Shown here in pieces: positions 36,725-44,992 of a stretch of 64,000 nt of DNA. Under the pieces are notes generated by a model, which was not told where the DNA came from, ran no database searches, and saw nothing but the letters and a program-made list of their open reading frames with translations. The position numbers and the translations under genes are program-made. The DNA comes from Longimicrobiales bacterium. Lineage in GTDB: Bacteria > Gemmatimonadota > Gemmatimonadetes > Longimicrobiales > Gaopeijiaceae. The DNA lies in contig CBDCNQ010000005.1 in assembly GCA_965219445.1 (NCBI GenBank), positions 832,001 through 896,000 of the forward strand, read 5' to 3'. The first letter of the stretch is position 1. The number at the start of each line of letters is the position of its first letter.

Positions 36725-38227
36725 TCAGCCGTCCATCATACGAAGAGGCCCGACCATTTGGAGCAGGGACTCGATCATCCCTTCGTCACCGTAGATATCT
36801 GGCACTCCGGAGACGGGCAGACCGACGGAGCGCCCTGCATCCGCCGTCGTCGGTCCCACGCAAAAGATCTGCACGCCCTCTAGATCGACGCCGGACGAGG
36901 CCAGCGACTTCGCGGCCGAAGGGCTGTAAAGAAGTACTGCATCCACTCCTCTCCTAAACGCTTCCAACGCAGCGTCACTCGGCGGCTGGAGCAGTGTGTC
37001 ATACACGTGGAGGGTCTCCACTTCCAAACCCACCCGAGCCAATCCGTTGGAGACCTCGTCGACCGCGAGTGTTCCACATGGGAAGAGTACGCGCTGTCCG
37101 CTCTTCGCCTCAGCCGCGATCGCCTCCACAAGAGCCCGAGCCCGATATTCTTCCGGGATCAGGTCGGCGCGGATCCCCACCCCTTCGAAGCGAGCGGCCG
37201 TCTTGGGACCGACCACTGCGATCCGAGCCGCCCCGAAGAAGCGCGCATCGAGTCCCTGGCGTTCAAGTTGGCGGAGGAAGCCCTCGACCCCGTGGAACGA
37301 TGTGAACACGATCCAATCGTGGTCGGAGCGCGGCCCCGAGAGGTCGGCCTCGACATACTCAATGCGGATCAGTGGCGAATCGATCACCTCCGCTCCGAGC
37401 CCTCGAAGTCTGGAAATGACCTGCCTGCTCGCCGAGGACGGCCGGGTCACGACCACTCGGCGGCCGACCAGGGGCCCGAACCCCAGAGCCGGCGTATTGC
37501 CGTCGAGGCGGGGCAACCCGGCTCCCGGTCCCACGATCAGCACCATCGGAGCCAACAGACCCTCCTCCCGGACTAGGCCCGCAATGGTAGCAAGGGTCCC
37601 GCGGACCTGACGCTCCCCTGGGAGCGTCCCCTCCTGAACGACCGCAGCAGGAGTCGCACCGTCCCGACCGGCGGTCACCAGGCCCTGCGTTACCTCCTCC
37701 AATCGAGCGCCGCCCATGAGGACCACCGACGTGTCCATTTTTGCCATCGCCTCGTAGGGGAGCTCACGGTCCGGAAGGCCCTTTCCGACGCTGGGCGTCA
37801 CCACACTAACGGTACTCGCCTGACCACGGAGGGTGAGCGGGATGCCCGCCCGCGTCGGTACGCCGGTTGCACTGCTCACGCCAGGAACCACCTCACAAGG
37901 GACGCCGGCCAGATAGCACGCTTCGATCTCCTCCCATCCCCGGCCGTAGACGAAAGGATCACCGCCCTTCAGGCGAACCACCTCCTTCCCGGCCCTGGCC
38001 CGCTCGATCAGGACTTCGTGGATCCGGTCCTGGGGCACCGTGTGCTGACCGGGCGCCTTGAAGACGTCGATCAGCTCGGCATCGGGCCTGGTGAGGGTCA
38101 AGAGCTCAGCACCGGCGAGCCGATCATAAACGACCACATCGGCACGCCCGAGAAGCTCCCCGCCGCGAACCGTGATGAGCCCCGCGTCTCCGGGCCCAGC
38201 ACCGACCAGCCACACCCGACCGGTCAA
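36725..38227 (-). CDS. cobA-hemD: Uroporphyrinogen-III C-methyltransferase / uroporphyrinogen-III synthase fusion
   Basis: VGAGPGD, RLKGGDPFVYGRG, VPGVSS; then VVTRP, FTS, AVVGPKT, SPSA. TTG start overlaps the upstream stop (TTGA). Confidence 0.9.
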   Translation of the reverse strand: MTGRVWLVGAGPGDAGLITVRGGELLGRADVVVYDRLAGAELLTLTRPDAELIDVFKAPGQHTVPQDRIHEVLIERARAGKEVVRLKGGDPFVYGRGWEEIEACYLAGVPCEVVPGVSSATGVPTRAGIPLTLRGQASTVSVVTPSVGKGLPDRELPYEAMAKMDTSVVLMGGARLEEVTQGLVTAGRDGATPAAVVQEGTLPGERQVRGTLATIAGLVREEGLLAPMVLIVGPGAGLPRLDGNTPALGFGPLVGRRVVVTRPSSASRQVISRLRGLGAEVIDSPLIRIEYVEADLSGPRSDHDWIVFTSFHGVEGFLRQLERQGLDARFFGAARIAVVGPKTAARFEGVGIRADLIPEEYRARALVEAIAAEAKSGQRVLFPCGTLAVDEVSNGLARVGLEVETLHVYDTLLQPPSDAALEAFRRGVDAVLLYSPSAAKSLASSGVDLEGVQIFCVGPTTADAGRSVGLPVSGVPDIYGDEGMIESLLQMVGPLRMMDG

Positions 38228-39135
38228 GGGACCGAGGGCGACCCCGCTCGCAGCGACAGAGACAAAGACACGGGCGAGCGTACCTGGCCTCCAGCCTCCC
38301 GGCCCGAGCGTGGGCGAGTGACAGAACCGAGCGACGATGTCCGGCGGGCGGGCGGGCGGCCGCGCGCATACCCTGCACGAGGGCTCGGGCTGAGCGAGGC
38401 ACGAATCCGCGACGTCGAATCGATCGCCTCGAGAGTGAGCGAGCCCAACTCCGGCCACTCCAATATCGGCGGAAGGACCTTTAGGGTCTCCGTCATGGTG
38501 TCGATCCCCGAGGAAGTTCGAGGGGCGGTCAAGGCACCGGCAAGATCCACGAGAACGTGCGGCCCACCCCCCATGAGCAAGGGAGCCGCCACGAGCGGGC
38601 GATCGCCGAGTGCGTCGGCGACGTCCGAAAGGTGAGGAGATCCATCGAGAAAGGCGGTGAGAATCTCCGTCTGTGGAAAGGTTAGAGCCAGTTCGTCCCG
38701 GAGCCGCCAAGCGGCGTCCGCACTCGAACGGACCCGTGGGGTGCCGTGTCCCACGAGAAGGACGGCCGGACTCAGTCCTCGTGCCGTCATGCCCTTCACC
38801 GCCTCGCCCACCCTGGTCGCCAAGATGTTGGAAAACGCTGGAAGGGTTCCGATCGGAGGGGCAATGATGAACGAACACGACGGATCCCCCTTCGCCAACT
38901 CCTCCGGCAAGCGCTGCCGGGCGTAGTATCCACCGCTGGCCATGATGGGCACTACCACAGGCCGCTTCCCTCGCAAACTCCGAGCTGCATCCTCGAAGCT
39001 CGGCGTGCCCTTCCAAAAAGCACACCCGAAGCGAACATCGGGTCGCCGCACCCGCAGGGTGTCCGTCAGCTCCAGGAGCGCCCGATTGGCCTCCGAGCCG
39101 TCGCCCGCGCCGTGCGCGGCGAGAATCACGGTCAT
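38224..39135 (-). CDS. sirB: Sirohydrochlorin chelatase, CbiX/SirB two-domain type
   Basis: Two His-Gly motifs (AAHG, VGHG), GGYY, GGPH; siroheme context. Confidence 0.8.
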   Translation of the reverse strand: MTVILAAHGAGDGSEANRALLELTDTLRVRRPDVRFGCAFWKGTPSFEDAARSLRGKRPVVVPIMASGGYYARQRLPEELAKGDPSCSFIIAPPIGTLPAFSNILATRVGEAVKGMTARGLSPAVLLVGHGTPRVRSSADAAWRLRDELALTFPQTEILTAFLDGSPHLSDVADALGDRPLVAAPLLMGGGPHVLVDLAGALTAPRTSSGIDTMTETLKVLPPILEWPELGSLTLEAIDSTSRIRASLSPSPRAGYARGRPPARRTSSLGSVTRPRSGREAGGQVRSPVSLSLSLRAGSPSVP

Positions 39136-39148
39136 AGGCTTGATACGT

Positions 39149-39784
39149 CTACTCCGCCGTCGTGCGAGCTCCGCTGACGAGCTCCTCGAGACTCCACTTC
39201 CCCTCGCCGCTCACCCTCATGTGGAGCGTCAGCGGCCCCCGCGTGTGACCGACTCTTTCAAACTCCACGGGCACCCCACCGTAGACGTCCGCAAGAACCT
39301 CATGGAGTTCTCCAGTAACCACATCGAACGCGGCATCCGTCGCGGGCACGGCAAGACGGTCCGTAAAACGAAAGGCCATCTCACGCGTCGCGAACCGCAC
39401 GGGGTTTTCCCCGGCGGTATCGTGCTCCAGTGCGGCAGCGGCCTCGAGCACGCCCACGATCGCCTCCCGCAAACGCTCGGCCAGAGTCCCTGACCAGCCC
39501 CTCTTCAATTCGTATTCGAACCCGATTCGGCCACCCGCCTCATCGGTGCGCAGATGCCACCGGTGAGCGACCAAAAGCACCCCGGGGCCTGCCGGAACAT
39601 GCGTGTAATCGTGTACATCGATGAGCGTCCCCGGGAGTCGGTCCTCCTGTATCCAACTATGAAAGACTTCGATCATCCGGGCTCGGTCGAACGACTCCTG
39701 ATCCTCGACGAAGACCTTCACCCCCACCCTTTGCGGTTCTGAAACCACACGAGACTCGAGTTCAGCAGCCACCTGCGTGCTCAT
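39149..39784 (-). CDS. Hypothetical protein coupled to sulfite reductase
   Basis: ATGA overlap with the sulfite reductase stop; FHSWIQ...LIDVHDYTHVPAGPGVLL motif-like segment. Confidence 0.7.
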   Translation of the reverse strand: MSTQVAAELESRVVSEPQRVGVKVFVEDQESFDRARMIEVFHSWIQEDRLPGTLIDVHDYTHVPAGPGVLLVAHRWHLRTDEAGGRIGFEYELKRGWSGTLAERLREAIVGVLEAAAALEHDTAGENPVRFATREMAFRFTDRLAVPATDAAFDVVTGELHEVLADVYGGVPVEFERVGHTRGPLTLHMRVSGEGKWSLEELVSGARTTAE

Positions 39785-42066
39785 ACCGACGCCGTCTCGA
39801 CGGTGCGGCCATGGTAAGAGTGGGCCGCCTCGATAAAGAGCTGGGCCTCTTCAATCCGCTTGCGAGCCCGCTCAGGCGTCGCTTCAACCCCATTACTGCC
39901 CTCGCCGTGCATGCGGAGCAAATAGTTTCCGAACTTTCCTCCCGCGTAAGGATCGTGGAAAAGGCCCGGGTCAAAGAGATGGGTCTTGAAAGCGGCAACT
40001 ACGTCTTCCGGATCTTCGCTGAGACCGGCCTCTTTCTCACGCGCGAGGGTCCTCGCGGCGATCAGCATCGCACGGTAGGCGATGTCGGCCGCGCCTGAGG
40101 AATCCCCCTGATCCAGCCGGTCCTGCGCCTCGAAGATCTCGCGCTCGCTGGCCTGGAGGCCAAACTCGACCGGCGAGACGACTTGGCCCGCACACTCACC
40201 GATGCCCATGTCGCCTAGCGTGAACTCCCTCGGGTCCCCCCAGTTCGAGTAGAAGCTACGGTCTTCCTCGTAGGTGGGAACCACGATCAGATCCTCGAGA
40301 AGGGTTCGGAGGCTGGCCTTGCCCACGCGGGTGACGAAGGCCTGGAAGCTCTCATCCCCTTGGCGCTCATCCACGTAATGCTGTGCGATCCTGTCCGTAG
40401 CGGCCGGGATGTTCCGGGCCGGCACCGCGACGATGGCCAATCCATAGGAACCCGCGTTCTCAGCCCACTGGCCTCCCAGCACGACCTGGAAGTGAGGCAC
40501 GTTGTACCCGTTGCGTTTCCGGCTCACGCCCCAGAAACCGATATCCGCCATGTGATGCTGCCCGCAGCTGTTGAAGCACCCACTGATCTTGATGCGCAGG
40601 CCGCGTATCACCTCATCCAATTCCTCACCGCGCTCATTGAAGCGGTCCATGAGTACGCGCCCCAAACCACGTGAGGAGGAGATGCCGAGTTTGCACGTGT
40701 CCGTTCCGGGGCAAGCCGTGATGTCCGAGACGGTTTCCGCCTGCGCGTCGGCGAGACCGAGATCCACCAAGGCCTCATACAGAGCGGGAAGGTCACTCTC
40801 ACGTACCCATCGGAGAGCCATATTCTGTTCAACCGTCATCCGGACCGCGTCCCCGGTAAACCGTCTAGCCACGTCGGCGAGGCCCCGCATCTGATCGGAC
40901 GTGATATCACCGAGAGGCAAGTATACCATTACGACCTTATACCCTGGCTGCCTCTGCGAAGCCACGTTGGCACCGAGCCACGCTTCCAACTCCGGGCCGG
41001 GCGTGAAGTCGTTCCCCTTCTCGATCTGCCAGAGCGGTCCATCGTGGCCCTTGTGAACGTCGTCGAGGTACGCCGTCCAACGGGGATCTTCGGGAAGCCC
41101 TGCGCGATCCTCCAGCACCAGACGACGAAACTCCTCGATGCCGAGCTTCGCGACGAGGAACTTCAAACGGGCGCGGGACCGAACATCCTTTTCTCCCAGA
41201 CGGGCAAAGACTCGAGAGATCGACTGGCACGTCGCAAGGAGCTCCTCTTCGGGTAGAAATTCATCGAACAACTCCGCCTGGTGCGGCACCGCCCCCAAGC
41301 CTCCGCCGACATAGAATTCGAAGCCGCGCTGCTCTTTTCCGTCCACCTCGCGGACCCGGGCAATCCCACCGAGGTCGTGCATCTTGACGAGTCCGCACGG
41401 CCGATCCGCACATCCCGAAAACGCAGGCTTGACCTTTCTCCCGAACTCCTGAGCATCCGGATGTCCGAGAAGGAAATCCGAGACGGCTGCGGCGTAGGGG
41501 CTGACGTCGAACGTCTGTGTCGTGCAGACCCCGGAGAGGTGGCAAGCGGTGACGTTTCTCACGACGTTGCCGCACGCCTCATGAGTCGTGATGCCCACGG
41601 CGCCCAGCCGCCGCATCAGATCCGGCGTCTCTTCAAGGTGAACGAAGTGCAGCTGGATGTCCTGCCGCGTCGTCACATGTAGGATCGTGTCCGCGTACTC
41701 CTCGGCGACCTCCGCCAACACGTCCATTTGATCGGCGGTAATTGCACCGAACGGATTCTTGATGCGCACCATGCCTGGGGCGTCCCACTGCGTTCCCGGA
41801 CCCTTGGTGAGGTCCGGGTTCGGGAATACCAACTCCCTGGTGTTCAATCCATCGTGACGTTGGCCGTTGTCGTACCGCTGACCGTAGACGCCGCGGCGCA
41901 GGCGCATCTCCGCGAATACCTCATCGGTGAGCTTTCCTGCCCGCTTCTGCTCGATAAGTCCCTCGAAGGAGTCGATCTCCCGCGAAAGCTTGTCGCCAAG
42001 GAGCGATCCGAGCTTGGCCTTCCATTGCCGTGGCTCCGAAGCCTCACCTTTACCATTGGTAGTCAT
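39781..42066 (-). CDS. sir: Ferredoxin-type nitrite/sulfite reductase (siroheme, 4Fe-4S) with C-terminal extension
   Basis: TTRQDIQ, CGNVVRN, CPGTDTC, GCFNSC; directly downstream of cysH. Confidence 0.9.
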   Translation of the reverse strand: MTTNGKGEASEPRQWKAKLGSLLGDKLSREIDSFEGLIEQKRAGKLTDEVFAEMRLRRGVYGQRYDNGQRHDGLNTRELVFPNPDLTKGPGTQWDAPGMVRIKNPFGAITADQMDVLAEVAEEYADTILHVTTRQDIQLHFVHLEETPDLMRRLGAVGITTHEACGNVVRNVTACHLSGVCTTQTFDVSPYAAAVSDFLLGHPDAQEFGRKVKPAFSGCADRPCGLVKMHDLGGIARVREVDGKEQRGFEFYVGGGLGAVPHQAELFDEFLPEEELLATCQSISRVFARLGEKDVRSRARLKFLVAKLGIEEFRRLVLEDRAGLPEDPRWTAYLDDVHKGHDGPLWQIEKGNDFTPGPELEAWLGANVASQRQPGYKVVMVYLPLGDITSDQMRGLADVARRFTGDAVRMTVEQNMALRWVRESDLPALYEALVDLGLADAQAETVSDITACPGTDTCKLGISSSRGLGRVLMDRFNERGEELDEVIRGLRIKISGCFNSCGQHHMADIGFWGVSRKRNGYNVPHFQVVLGGQWAENAGSYGLAIVAVPARNIPAATDRIAQHYVDERQGDESFQAFVTRVGKASLRTLLEDLIVVPTYEEDRSFYSNWGDPREFTLGDMGIGECAGQVVSPVEFGLQASEREIFEAQDRLDQGDSSGAADIAYRAMLIAARTLAREKEAGLSEDPEDVVAAFKTHLFDPGLFHDPYAGGKFGNYLLRMHGEGSNGVEATPERARKRIEEAQLFIEAAHSYHGRTVETASV

Positions 42067-42146: not shown

Positions 42147-42845
42147 TTACGTCAAGCCATGTATGCCGCATTCCAGACGTTCGCTCCCCCTCCACCGGCC
42201 AGCCCGCTCATGCTCTTCCTCGGAAACGGGCGTGGTCAGAGGTTGGTCGCCAAGGCTCAGGTAGCCCATGTCGTGGAGCGGGTTATACGGCACGTCGTTT
42301 GCGCGGAGAAACAACCAAACCTCGTCGGCCGACCAAGAGGCCACAGGATTGACCTTGATGCGATCCCCAATCTGCACATGGGCGAGATCGGCTCGGCTCG
42401 CCGACTGGTCGCGGCGGCGCCCGGTGATCCATCCTTCCACACCATCGAGGGCCCGTTTCATGGGCTCGACCCGCGTGAGTCGATGAAAGAGCTCCAGGTC
42501 ACGTTGCCACAACCGCTCCCCGTACTTCTCCTCGAACGCCGCGCGCGACTCAGCGGGCCGATAGACGCGTACGTCGAGGCCATAGTGTGCCTTCACACGC
42601 TCGGCATGCTCGAGTGTCTCCGGGAAGTGGTACAGCGTATCCACGAATGCGACGGGCACCTGCGGGGCGATCTCGGCGAGGAGATGAAGATTCACCATCC
42701 CCGTGGAGCCGAACGAAGACGCCACAATCAGCCGCCCGGGCGTTACGGTTTCGACGGCCCAACGAATGGCGTCCGAAGGATGTGCTCCCTCGAGCCAGTC
42801 GTTGATCCGTCTCACGTCTTCGGTGCCGGCTGTCGCCGCAGTCAT
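42147..42845 (-). CDS. cysH: (P)APS reductase without Fe-S cysteines
   Basis: SSFG, DTLYHFPET, WITGRRRDQ, ERAGRW, ECGIH. ATG 42845 with GGAAGG RBS. Confidence 0.92.
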   Translation of the reverse strand: MTAATAGTEDVRRINDWLEGAHPSDAIRWAVETVTPGRLIVASSFGSTGMVNLHLLAEIAPQVPVAFVDTLYHFPETLEHAERVKAHYGLDVRVYRPAESRAAFEEKYGERLWQRDLELFHRLTRVEPMKRALDGVEGWITGRRRDQSASRADLAHVQIGDRIKVNPVASWSADEVWLFLRANDVPYNPLHDMGYLSLGDQPLTTPVSEEEHERAGRWRGSERLECGIHGLT

Positions 42846-42897
42846 CTGCTGCCTTCCGATTTCAAATTCAACATGCTTTTCTTCCACCGTGCGACCC

Positions 42898-42930
42898 AAA
42901 AAAAAGCCGCAACCCTCGAGGGGCCGCGGC
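42898..42930 (-). terminator. Attenuator terminator T3
   Basis: mRNA GCCGCGGCCC-CUCGA-GGGUUGCGGC followed by U8, about 50 nt before the cysH start. Confidence 0.88.
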
Positions 42931-42954
42931 GTTCGCATGAGTCTTCGTTTCTTG

Positions 42955-43041
42955 TCAACGACTCGTCGGAACGTGCCCCTCTCTAGGCGTGACCGTACAA
43001 CAACAACAACAGCAACAACACATGGCCATCCGTGGAGTCAT
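42955..43041 (-). CDS. Polycysteine leader peptide 2: MTPRMAMCCCCCCCCTVTPREGHVPTSR
   Basis: GAGGTG RBS 6 nt before ATG 43041; 8 consecutive Cys codons at 42997-43020; followed by T3. Confidence 0.88.
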   Translation of the reverse strand: MTPRMAMCCCCCCCCTVTPREGHVPTSR

Positions 43042-43126
43042 CTCGAACACCTCGAGAAATTCATGGAACCGCACGCTTCGGATACCTCTTCCTAAGTTTC
43101 CGTTCCCGGTCCTACCCGGTTCGAAC

Positions 43127-43160
43127 AAAAAAGGCCCTCGGGAGAACCCGGTGGCCTTTT
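43127..43160 (-). terminator. Attenuator terminator T2
   Basis: mRNA AAAAGGCC-AC-CGGG-UUCU-CCCG-AG-GGCC-U6. Confidence 0.75.
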
Positions 43161-43181
43161 GATCCTGGAAACGATACCCAC

Positions 43182-43209
43182 AAAAAAGCCACCGAATGTC
43201 TCCGGTGGC
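43182..43209 (-). terminator. Attenuator terminator T1
   Basis: mRNA GCCACCGGA-GACA-UUCGGUGGC-U6. Confidence 0.85.
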
Positions 43210-43237
43210 GTTTCAGGGAATCTTGTCGTGTGTATGC

Positions 43238-43333
43238 CTATACGACGTCTCCCCGACACCCCACCGGGCTCGGACAAGAACATCGGCAACAACACCTCTT
43301 GAGCATCATGACATGCGTCCTTTTACAACACAT
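43238..43333 (-). CDS. Cys-rich leader peptide 1: MCCKRTHVMMLKRCCCRCSCPSPVGCRGDVV (alternative start 43309)
   Basis: 8 Cys in 31 aa; AGGA RBS 8 nt before ATG 43309; followed by T1 and T2. Confidence 0.78.
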   Translation of the reverse strand: MCCKRTHVMMLKRCCCRCSCPSPVGCRGDVV

Positions 43334-43363
43334 CCGCTTTGTCACGCATCTTTCTAAAGAACA

Positions 43364-43391
43364 ACGCTAATCGCCTGAAGCGCCCTGTCAA
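43364..43391 (-). promoter_or_regulatory. Sigma70-type promoter of the cys leader
   Basis: TTGACA-N16-TAGCGT just upstream of leader 1. Confidence 0.65.
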
Positions 43392-43573
43392 GGGAGGAGC
43401 CAACAAGGGCTTCCCTGGCGACTCGTGCACGTTCCACCCATAATGGCGCCACGGCAACGCCGATGGCGCACCGCCGCGGAGGTAAGACACGATGTTCTTG
43501 GGGGTGTGTTGACGATCTTCGGCCCGAATTTCGTAGGCGGCTATCGAGTCCCGCACGGGGGGATCCGGTAGCC

Positions 43574-44992
43574 ATGCCCGACGGGGCCCTGACATCAGGA
43601 AAACCGTTCGACCGCTCGATCGTCGAGGGCCCTATCCCCGGTGTGGTCTGGAAGCTCGCCTGGCCGACCATGCTTCAGAACGTTCTCGGCGGGCTCCAGG
43701 GCATCGTGGACCACGCCATGGTCGGACACTTCGTTGGCTACACCGGGAACGCCGCCATTGGGGTCGCCTGGCAAATCTTCCTAGTCGTAATGGTGTTCAT
43801 CAGCTCCCTCTTCACCGGCATGGGCGTTCTGGTCGCTCGGTTTGTGGGGGCCCACGAGCCGGACAAGGTGAACCGGACCGTATATCAGGCGTTCTTCACT
43901 GCCGCGGTCATGTCAATCGGGATCCTGGCTCCACTCGGGTATTTCCTCTCGCCGTGGCTTCTCGGACTCGTGAACGCCGCCCCCGACGTACAAGCGGAGG
44001 CCCTCCTGTATCTCCGCATCATGTTCGTGTTCAGCTTCGGCATGATCGTCTACTTCATGGTCGGAGGTGCACTCCGATCCGCAGGGGACGCACGCACGCC
44101 GCTCCGTCTCGGCATCATGCTCACTACGCTCAACATCACCCTGAACGTCATTCTCATTCCGGGGTTGGGACCGATCCCGGCGTTCGGCACCACCGGAGCG
44201 GCCATGGGCACCGTGATCGCGGGGGGCCTGATGGCGGCCATCTCCATCTACCTATTGTTCGCCGGAAAATGGGTCGTGGGCTTTCGCCGCGGCATGGACT
44301 GGAGGCCGGACTTCGGGATCATTCGTGAGCTGTTCCGTTTCGGGATTCCAACAGGTCTGCAAGGTGTGGCGATGAACGTCGGAGGGGTCATGCTCCTCGC
44401 GTACATCGGATCGCTACCCCAGAGCGGTGAGGCCCAGGCTGCTTATGTGATCAGTTATACCCAACTCTTCTCGATGATCACCTGGACGTCGGCGGGCCTG
44501 CTGGGTGCCACTGCGGCGATCTCCGGACAGAACCTGGGCGCCGGACGACCGGAGCGCACGATCCACGCGGTGCACGTGGCCTCTTGGCTCGGGCTGGGGG
44601 TTGCCTCGACTGTCGGCGTTCTCTTCCTCGCGATACCGCGCGTTCTCCTCGGGTTCTTCGGTGTGGAAGATCCGCTCGTCGCTCAAATGGCCGTCCGTCT
44701 GCTCTCGATCTTGAGCGCCTCCGGCCTGTTCATCACCGTCGCGTTGGCCTACACCGGAGGGCTTCAGGGAACAGGAGACACGCGGAGTCCATTTTACATA
44801 TCACTCGTCTCGCAGCTCATCATCCCGATCGGCATCTGTGCGGTCCTTCAGGCGGCCGGGATACTCCAGGCGACGTACATCTGGCTTGCCATCCTCATGG
44901 GGCACATGACTCGATGCGGGCTCACCGTTGTCCGTTTCCGGCAGGGAAAGTGGCGTGAAATCAAGGTGAGCATCGAGCCGGCCCGGTCGTGA
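43574..44992 (+). CDS. MATE family efflux transporter
   Basis: KLAWP, VDHAMVG, LRSAGDARTP, GQNLGAG, LQGTGDTRSP; about 12 TMs. Confidence 0.9.
   Translation: MPDGALTSGKPFDRSIVEGPIPGVVWKLAWPTMLQNVLGGLQGIVDHAMVGHFVGYTGNAAIGVAWQIFLVVMVFISSLFTGMGVLVARFVGAHEPDKVNRTVYQAFFTAAVMSIGILAPLGYFLSPWLLGLVNAAPDVQAEALLYLRIMFVFSFGMIVYFMVGGALRSAGDARTPLRLGIMLTTLNITLNVILIPGLGPIPAFGTTGAAMGTVIAGGLMAAISIYLLFAGKWVVGFRRGMDWRPDFGIIRELFRFGIPTGLQGVAMNVGGVMLLAYIGSLPQSGEAQAAYVISYTQLFSMITWTSAGLLGATAAISGQNLGAGRPERTIHAVHVASWLGLGVASTVGVLFLAIPRVLLGFFGVEDPLVAQMAVRLLSILSASGLFITVALAYTGGLQGTGDTRSPFYISLVSQLIIPIGICAVLQAAGILQATYIWLAILMGHMTRCGLTVVRFRQGKWREIKVSIEPARS

Follow-up and report, generated by a model that had tools for sequence, protein, structure and literature searches.

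Two predicted cysteine attenuators in series ahead of a sulfate-reduction and siroheme operon in a Longimicrobiales bacterium

Two short cysteine-rich open reading frames, interleaved with three terminators, lie upstream of cysH in an uncultured Longimicrobiales bacterium (Gemmatimonadota). We analysed a 64,000-nucleotide stretch of its genome (the window, G000:C5:832001-896000; the genome itself is labelled G000). All of the regulatory parts lie on its minus strand, in the gap that separates cysH from a divergent MatE gene. After the promoter come leader 1, terminators T1 and T2, leader 2 and terminator T3, followed by the cysH operon (Table 1); leader 1 with T1 and T2 is referred to here as unit 1, and leader 2 with T3 as unit 2. 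The promoter hexamers, both leaders, the three terminators and the order of the operon had been proposed in a sequence-only reading of this DNA, and each was located again at its minus-strand position. The tandem region is real. One public contig, which may come from the source sample, matches window positions 42600-43602 letter for letter.

Table 1. Features of the tandem leader region and the genes behind it, in window positions
Feature	Position	Strand	Description
Sigma70-type promoter	43364..43391	-	-35 TTGACA 43391-43386, N16, -10 TAGCGT 43369-43364
Leader 1	43238..43309	-	23 aa, MMLKRCCCRCSCPSPVGCRGDVV; purine-rich RBS 43322-43318, 8 nt upstream of ATG
Unit 1 antiterminator segment	43261..43267	-	pairs with T1 5' arm 43208-43202
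Terminator T1	43182..43209	-	9-bp stem, 6 U
Terminator T2	about 43127..43160	-	with U tract; 5' arm can pair with freed T1 3' arm
Leader 2	42955..43074	-	28 aa from ATG 43041 (MTPRMAM-C8-TVTPREGHVPTSR) or 39 aa from GTG 43074; GAGGTG RBS 43053-43048; 8 Cys codons, run 43020-42997
Unit 2 antiterminator segment	42969..42981	-	pairs with 42934-42918 (T3 5' arm and loop)
Terminator T3	42898..42930	-	10-bp stem, 8 U
10-codon ORF without Cys	42842..42874	-	stop overlaps cysH start; own purine-rich site
cysH, (phospho)adenylyl-sulfate reductase	42147..42845	-	PF01507; NF002537 and TIGR00434 over cut-off
Nitrite/sulfite reductase family hemoprotein	39781..42066	-	PF01077, PF03460; below all NCBIfam equivalog cut-offs
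Conserved protein of no known family	39149..39784	-	no Pfam match; unnamed clusters only
CbiX/SirB-family chelatase	38224..39135	-	PF01903
cobA-hemD fusion	36725..38215	-	PF00590 and PF02602; TIGR01469

The downstream genes fit a role in cysteine supply, comprising cysH, the reductase and the siroheme genes, with sat-cysC elsewhere in the genome. Gene context points to sulfite reductase as the product of the hemoprotein gene, and the chelatase probably acts at the siroheme step. The protein of no known family is possibly a partner of the reductase; its gene comes after the reductase gene in most loci. The same protein family trails this type of reductase in Gemmatimonadota, Chloroflexota and Verrucomicrobiota, among others. 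The small ORF whose stop overlaps the cysH start is kept in 21 of 23 loci, with ATG/GTG exchange, and may be a translational coupler or the relic of a lost gene. The sat-cysC gene encodes an ATP sulfurylase domain and an APS kinase domain in a single frame (G000:C4:627145-628269, minus strand), far from cysH, and the leader scan described below detected no cysteine leader upstream of it.

A strict scan of the 4.56-Mb genome, for at least three consecutive Cys codons near a stop together with a start codon and a terminator, returned only three matches; two of these are leaders 1 and 2, so the arrangement exceeds chance. A looser rule gave 68 matches genome-wide, and the terminator count alone is not significant (three found, versus 1.5 +/- 1.1 in shuffled sequence). 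Searches against Rfam gave nothing near the gathering score in the window region or in four of the loci, neither the aptamer of a tandem riboswitch nor a T-box domain. Outside the window, at G000:C5:821987 (plus strand), the same genome holds a candidate histidine attenuator, in which a terminator follows a short ORF containing a His-codon run.

Both leaders have the anatomy of a classical attenuator, an ORF with a ribosome binding site and a run of cognate codons. Leader 1 had been assigned a start at 43333 (MCCK...), which is in frame in only 6 of 25 loci; the ATG at 43309 (MMLKRCCC...) is conserved instead, being invariant in 20 of 20 distinct sequences, and is most likely the start. This ATG lies 55 nt downstream of the -10 box and has its own ribosome binding site, and leader 1 is thus not leaderless. 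For leader 2, the proposed ATG at 43041 with its GAGGTG site is present, to which we add a second in-frame start at 43074. The two starts are 33 nt apart, each behind a GAGG-like site, and each shows ATG/GTG exchange in some locus. TGT accounts for 5 of 6 Cys codons in leader 1 and 7 of 8 in leader 2 (12 of 14 in all) compared to 31% in long ORFs, and for 70-81% of leader Cys codons in the three groups of genus, family and other phyla. The genome encodes a single tRNA-Cys(GCA), which reads TGT by wobble; such reading may sharpen sensing, and repeat slippage could contribute to the excess.

The promoter hexamers are identical in 24 of 25 genus loci. We call the promoter because of this conservation, as a stricter promoter rule missed it and called none in the window leader region. 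Scored as an eight-position motif (TTGAC-N16/18-TA...T), which captures sigma70-like sites only, the promoter reaches 8/8 ahead of leader 1 at 24 of the 25 genus loci and in 25 of the 26 Chloroflexota tandems described below. Judged on sigma70-type sites, the two leader ORFs lie under one promoter, an arrangement of the mgtCBR type.

Placing a model ribosome at Cys codons 6-8 of leader 1 is predicted to let the unit 1 antiterminator form (duplex z -2.4), and the probability of T1 then falls to 0.03-0.08; with the ribosome anywhere from codon 12 to the stop, it is 1.00. The antiterminator segment is invariant in 20 of 20 sequences and so offers no covariation, and this invariance is partly by construction, since 17 loci were found by a pattern over that segment. 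T2 seems to serve leader 1 as a relay terminator. The T1 3' arm and U tract can form a 15-bp relay helix with the T2 5' arm, at about -21 kcal/mol, and once T2 is transcribed the modelled stall favours this helix, removing T2; one stall could therefore silence both terminators. The relay helix is 96.9% paired across 20 sequences, with one-sided changes only. As the T2 5' arm repeats that of T1, descent by duplication could give the same relay picture, and in one co-transcriptional snapshot the relay helix beats T1 even with the ribosome at the stop (0.74), which makes the back-up role of T2 uncertain.

Unit 2 behaves differently at equilibrium, where folding gives no switch and the probability of T3 is 0.84-0.99 when the ribosome is stalled. 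In snapshots taken before the T3 3' arm leaves the polymerase, the antiterminator forms with a probability of 0.98-1.00 under stalling and 0 with the ribosome at the stop. A mutually exclusive antiterminator freed by stalling is thus found in silico for both units, although for unit 2 in the snapshots and not at equilibrium. Four of five E. coli leaders also fail the equilibrium test, so the test is weak both ways and was dropped as a discriminator. T3 is an intrinsic terminator ending more than 40 nt upstream of the cysH ribosome binding site, which does not fit a hairpin that hides this site without terminating.

Stop-to-terminator distances are 28 nt in unit 1 and 24 nt in unit 2, as compared to 23 nt in E. 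coli thrL and leuL, and the intrinsic terminators have 95-98% of cells paired across the genus. Pairing of the leader segment with the terminator 5' arm beats shuffled sequence in both window units (p 0.025 and 0.040), and p<=0.05 is reached by 23 of 35 genus, 10 of 33 family and 35 of 71 other-phyla units, kin among these not being independent. Among the five E. coli controls, one passes under the same definition and three under a wider one. Aligning relatives for Cys runs and covariation, a check suggested by the sequence-only reading, bore out the first and hardly the second: the Cys runs are conserved, whereas stem covariation is nearly absent in the genus. No antiterminator or relay pair shows a two-sided change in the genus alignments, the genus terminators hold two such cells, and the Chloroflexota second-unit antiterminator holds three cells of 270.

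We interpret this region as two trp/his-type cysteine attenuators in series, with antiterminators placed for release by a stall at Cys codons, and put the probability of this reading at roughly 0.8. Conservation, anatomy and folding all fit the Cys stalling under one promoter that had been predicted, and the classical features are found in our sequence tests, covariation aside; we expect both units to work like the trp, his and thr attenuators. In this model, a single transcript starting near 43357 would pass two independent ribosome-coupled checkpoints, at each of which a ribosome would translate a short leader. With ample Cys-tRNA, the ribosome would reach the stop and cover the antiterminator segment, the terminator would fold, and transcription would end at T1, with T2 as back-up, or at T3. 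When Cys-tRNA is scarce, a stall on the Cys run would let the segment behind the run pair with the terminator 5' arm, leading to read-through, and in unit 1 the freed T1 3' arm may then pair with the T2 5' arm. As only transcripts past both checkpoints would reach cysH, the reductase and the siroheme genes, the read-through fractions would multiply. The expected result is a lower leak under plentiful cysteine and probably a sharper response.

Within the genus, the region is present in 9 of 12 genomes, and the three without it are 73-85% complete. Promoter, leader 1, T1 and T2 are kept in all nine. Both units are present in five (G000, G001, G006, G007, G008), and unit 2 is missing or cut in the other four, with relics in two of them (G010, G011). 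Of 17 metagenome loci, ten are tandem and seven are not; these were found by a pattern inside leader 1, and so cannot show loss of unit 1, and they include the G010 contig and several near-identical sequences. T3 appears decayed in G008 and in one further locus (L089). On a midpoint-rooted tree of 25 loci, with deep-node support of 37-91 and no clade test, single-unit rows fall in five places, four of them with unit 2 relics. The ancestor of the genus probably had the tandem, with several later losses of unit 2, so the benefit of a second unit may be small. Duplication of one unit from the other is unsupported, as profile search detects no homology between them and the unit 1 model scores unit 2 at 1.6 bits.

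Several genus loci have been rearranged. In G006, the gap between the units could be read as an ancestral gene block, which we rejected; it is a 3.2-kb insertion of an IS1595-family element with an 8-bp target duplication, and unit 2 is intact behind it. The element (L028:10670-13880, on contig G006:C2) carries a cytosine methyltransferase gene and an unnamed ORF, by position a candidate restriction enzyme. The cysH gene has been deleted from G006 and from G007 (loci L028 and L029), both of which retain the tandem leader and the reductase operon; in G007, the opening codons of cysH have become fused to the reductase frame.

The reductase is found in 48 of 314 genomes of the family, 38 of them outside the genus. 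By script, 27 of these 38 loci, spanning 11 genera, have a Cys leader and terminator ahead of cysH, of cysG or of the reductase gene. The remaining 11 comprise three with a leader and a weak tail or run, two cut by a contig end, one weak match and five, all of a single genus, that carry the reductase without a leader. Leader peptides across the family are unlike one another, with Cys runs of varying length, the run alone being common to them. Two attenuators are also present in the genus g96, where they lie 4 kb from one another at the heads of different transcription units and have a promoter each. Unit 2 of the window scores weakly with the g96 cysH attenuators (11.6 bits, with shuffles at most 2.0), which may reflect shared terminator build, and the unit 1 profile matches no other group. 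Descent of the two units from the cysH-type and cysG-type attenuators of g96 is thus unsupported, since unit 2 scores with the cysH type only and unit 1 with neither. By eye, G330 also holds a tandem (L060:4560-5000, as oriented), in which a Met/Cys leader with a terminator and a CCCRCC leader with a terminator precede the reductase. Class-wide, 30 of 86 PF01507 matches were read under a loose rule, and a unit was found in two, one of them convincing; most of these matches are longer and are presumably cysD-type genes. In another family of the class, one PF01507 gene has a Cys leader and terminator (L196, G438).

Tandems also occur outside the phylum. Among 72 reductase loci drawn from the best 80 of 143 confirmed matches, the script assigned two units to 26 loci, a single unit to 20 and no unit to the other 26, whereas control tiles under the same rule gave two units in 0 of 1097 and one in 39 of 1097. 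Every one of the 26 tandems comes from a locus titled Chloroflexota, of which there are 52. Those in Anaerolineae (L101, L116, L133-L172) are compact, lying before cysH or the reductase with stops about 180-215 nt apart and one promoter. Profile search found no likeness between the window units and the Chloroflexota units; separate origins of the Longimicrobiales and Chloroflexota tandems are therefore likely, though not proven, as short RNAs lose likeness fast.

The repeated loss of unit 2 raises the question of whether it contributes at all. Unit 1 may be the working attenuator and unit 2 a leftover that adds little and is being lost, for example an earlier cysH attenuator left behind once unit 1 had come in with its promoter. 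The single-unit rows with their relics, the transposable element between the units in G006, and the faint resemblance of unit 2, and not unit 1, to cysH attenuators of another genus would all be expected of such a history. Nevertheless, we consider it unlikely. Where unit 2 is kept, the Cys run is still there, the two starts remain in frame (in 15 of the 16 loci retaining the region) and the antiterminator helices are 99.5% paired within the genus. A leftover terminator without working antitermination would also shut the operon. Further, apparently unrelated tandems are common in Chloroflexota, and there is the one seen in G330.

It is far less probable that the units belong to two nested transcripts, with unit 2 served by its own promoter for another sigma factor and hence not in series with unit 1. 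The g96 attenuators on their separate transcription units offer a precedent, a conserved block lies in the spacer before leader 2, and unit 2 has stayed intact behind the G006 insertion. That block, however, is explained by the ribosome binding site and the in-frame GTG and ATG, and between the units, sigma70-like scores in the genus reach no more than 5-6 of 8; in the Chloroflexota tandems, no 8/8 sigma70-like motif occurs there and 7/8 is seen in 3 of 26. A third possibility is that the ORFs make functional Cys-rich peptides for metal or sulfur binding and that the hairpins are ordinary terminators of their transcripts. Poly-Cys peptides can bind metals, and within the genus neither peptide varies much after its Cys run, yet we give this reading almost no credence. 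What is invariant is the nucleotide sequence of the stretch pairing with the terminator, down to third codon positions; the run varies from three to eight Cys codons; peptides across the family share the run only; and the operon would be left with no other promoter-like site after T3 under the stricter rule.

Serial cysteine attenuation, our preferred reading, has clear relatives among known systems. E. coli cysteine genes are controlled by CysB. Like E. coli thrL, trpL, hisL, leuL and pheL, the two units have a short ORF, a cognate codon run, an antiterminator segment, an intrinsic terminator 20-30 nt behind the stop and the cognate pathway downstream; they differ in that cysteine is sensed, two units stand in series and unit 1 has two terminators. 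The sequence-only reading knew of no described tandem, intrinsic-terminator cysteine attenuator. The uORFC-8-2 motif before Rhodobacterales cysS is a predicted single Cys-codon uORF with an intrinsic terminator (PMC8632094). That motif is a single unit with two Cys codons, mostly UGC, before a tRNA synthetase, whereas the runs here are longer, mostly TGT, doubled and placed before sulfate reduction. The proven cysteine case, Ms5788A-type mycobacterial leaderless polycysteine sORFs, acts on translation (10.1101/834739), and Actinobacterial cys leaders have been predicted without terminators (PMC1262725). Both have in common with our leaders a poly-Cys sORF as Cys-tRNA sensor before sulfur genes, but are leaderless and translational or lack terminators, where the units here have ribosome binding sites and intrinsic terminators.

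Tandem attenuation as such is also known. In Salmonella mgtCBR, two translated short ORFs in one leader, mgtM and mgtP, are each an attenuator (PMC3641672), as is predicted here. The mgtCBR leader responds to two signals, ATP and proline, without intrinsic terminators, whereas both ORFs here have Cys runs and intrinsic terminators, one signal read twice. Also related in logic are pseudo-cooperative tandem riboswitches that bind the same ligand twice, such as tandem TPP (PMC9481103), with two successive decisions to terminate or read on, one ligand and an expected steeper response; in our case there is no aptamer, Rfam being negative, and the sensor is the ribosome. PMC13236596, PMC8079986 and PMC2965389 add no cysteine terminator case. 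Novelty thus narrows to the same-amino-acid form: our literature search, which covered few subscription papers, found no same-amino-acid tandem of leader-peptide attenuators, and nothing for Gemmatimonadota or Chloroflexota. Earlier predictions may be contained in the Russian comparative survey by Lopatovskaya, Seliverstov and Lyubetsky (around 2010), which treats attenuation in many phyla. Most likely, the locus is a textbook switch in a doubled form that we did not find in print. It stands out for its predicted relay terminator, for having two units that are unlike, for the deletion variants that occur naturally in the genus and for the parallel tandem in Chloroflexota.

It is tempting to speculate that sulfur-assimilation operons have reached stacks of unrelated same-amino-acid attenuators more than once, in Longimicrobiales and, apparently separately, in Anaerolineae. 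Stacking might be favoured because multiplied read-through gives a tight, switch-like response to cysteine; two thresholds might be set by leader 1, whose run is short and spaced, and leader 2, whose run is long; and unit 1 might act as a relay, both of its terminators being silenced by one stalled ribosome. We hold this joint reading tentatively, and think it somewhat less likely to be right than wrong. The genus provides a natural deletion series for the stacking idea.

Beyond the locus itself, cysteine is a gap among the amino acids with proven terminator-type attenuators, in that the tested case is translational (10.1101/834739) and the terminator case a prediction (PMC8632094); if our reading is true, these leaders would fill it. 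The tandem allows the pseudo-cooperative logic of tandem riboswitches to be probed for ribosome sensors, and the leader, which is 550 nt long and occurs naturally with one unit, two units or relics, could be used as a compact biosensor for cysteine. Because the leader ORFs fall below annotation cut-offs, this control is invisible in current annotations. If true, attenuation would control sulfate reduction and siroheme synthesis in two little-studied phyla.
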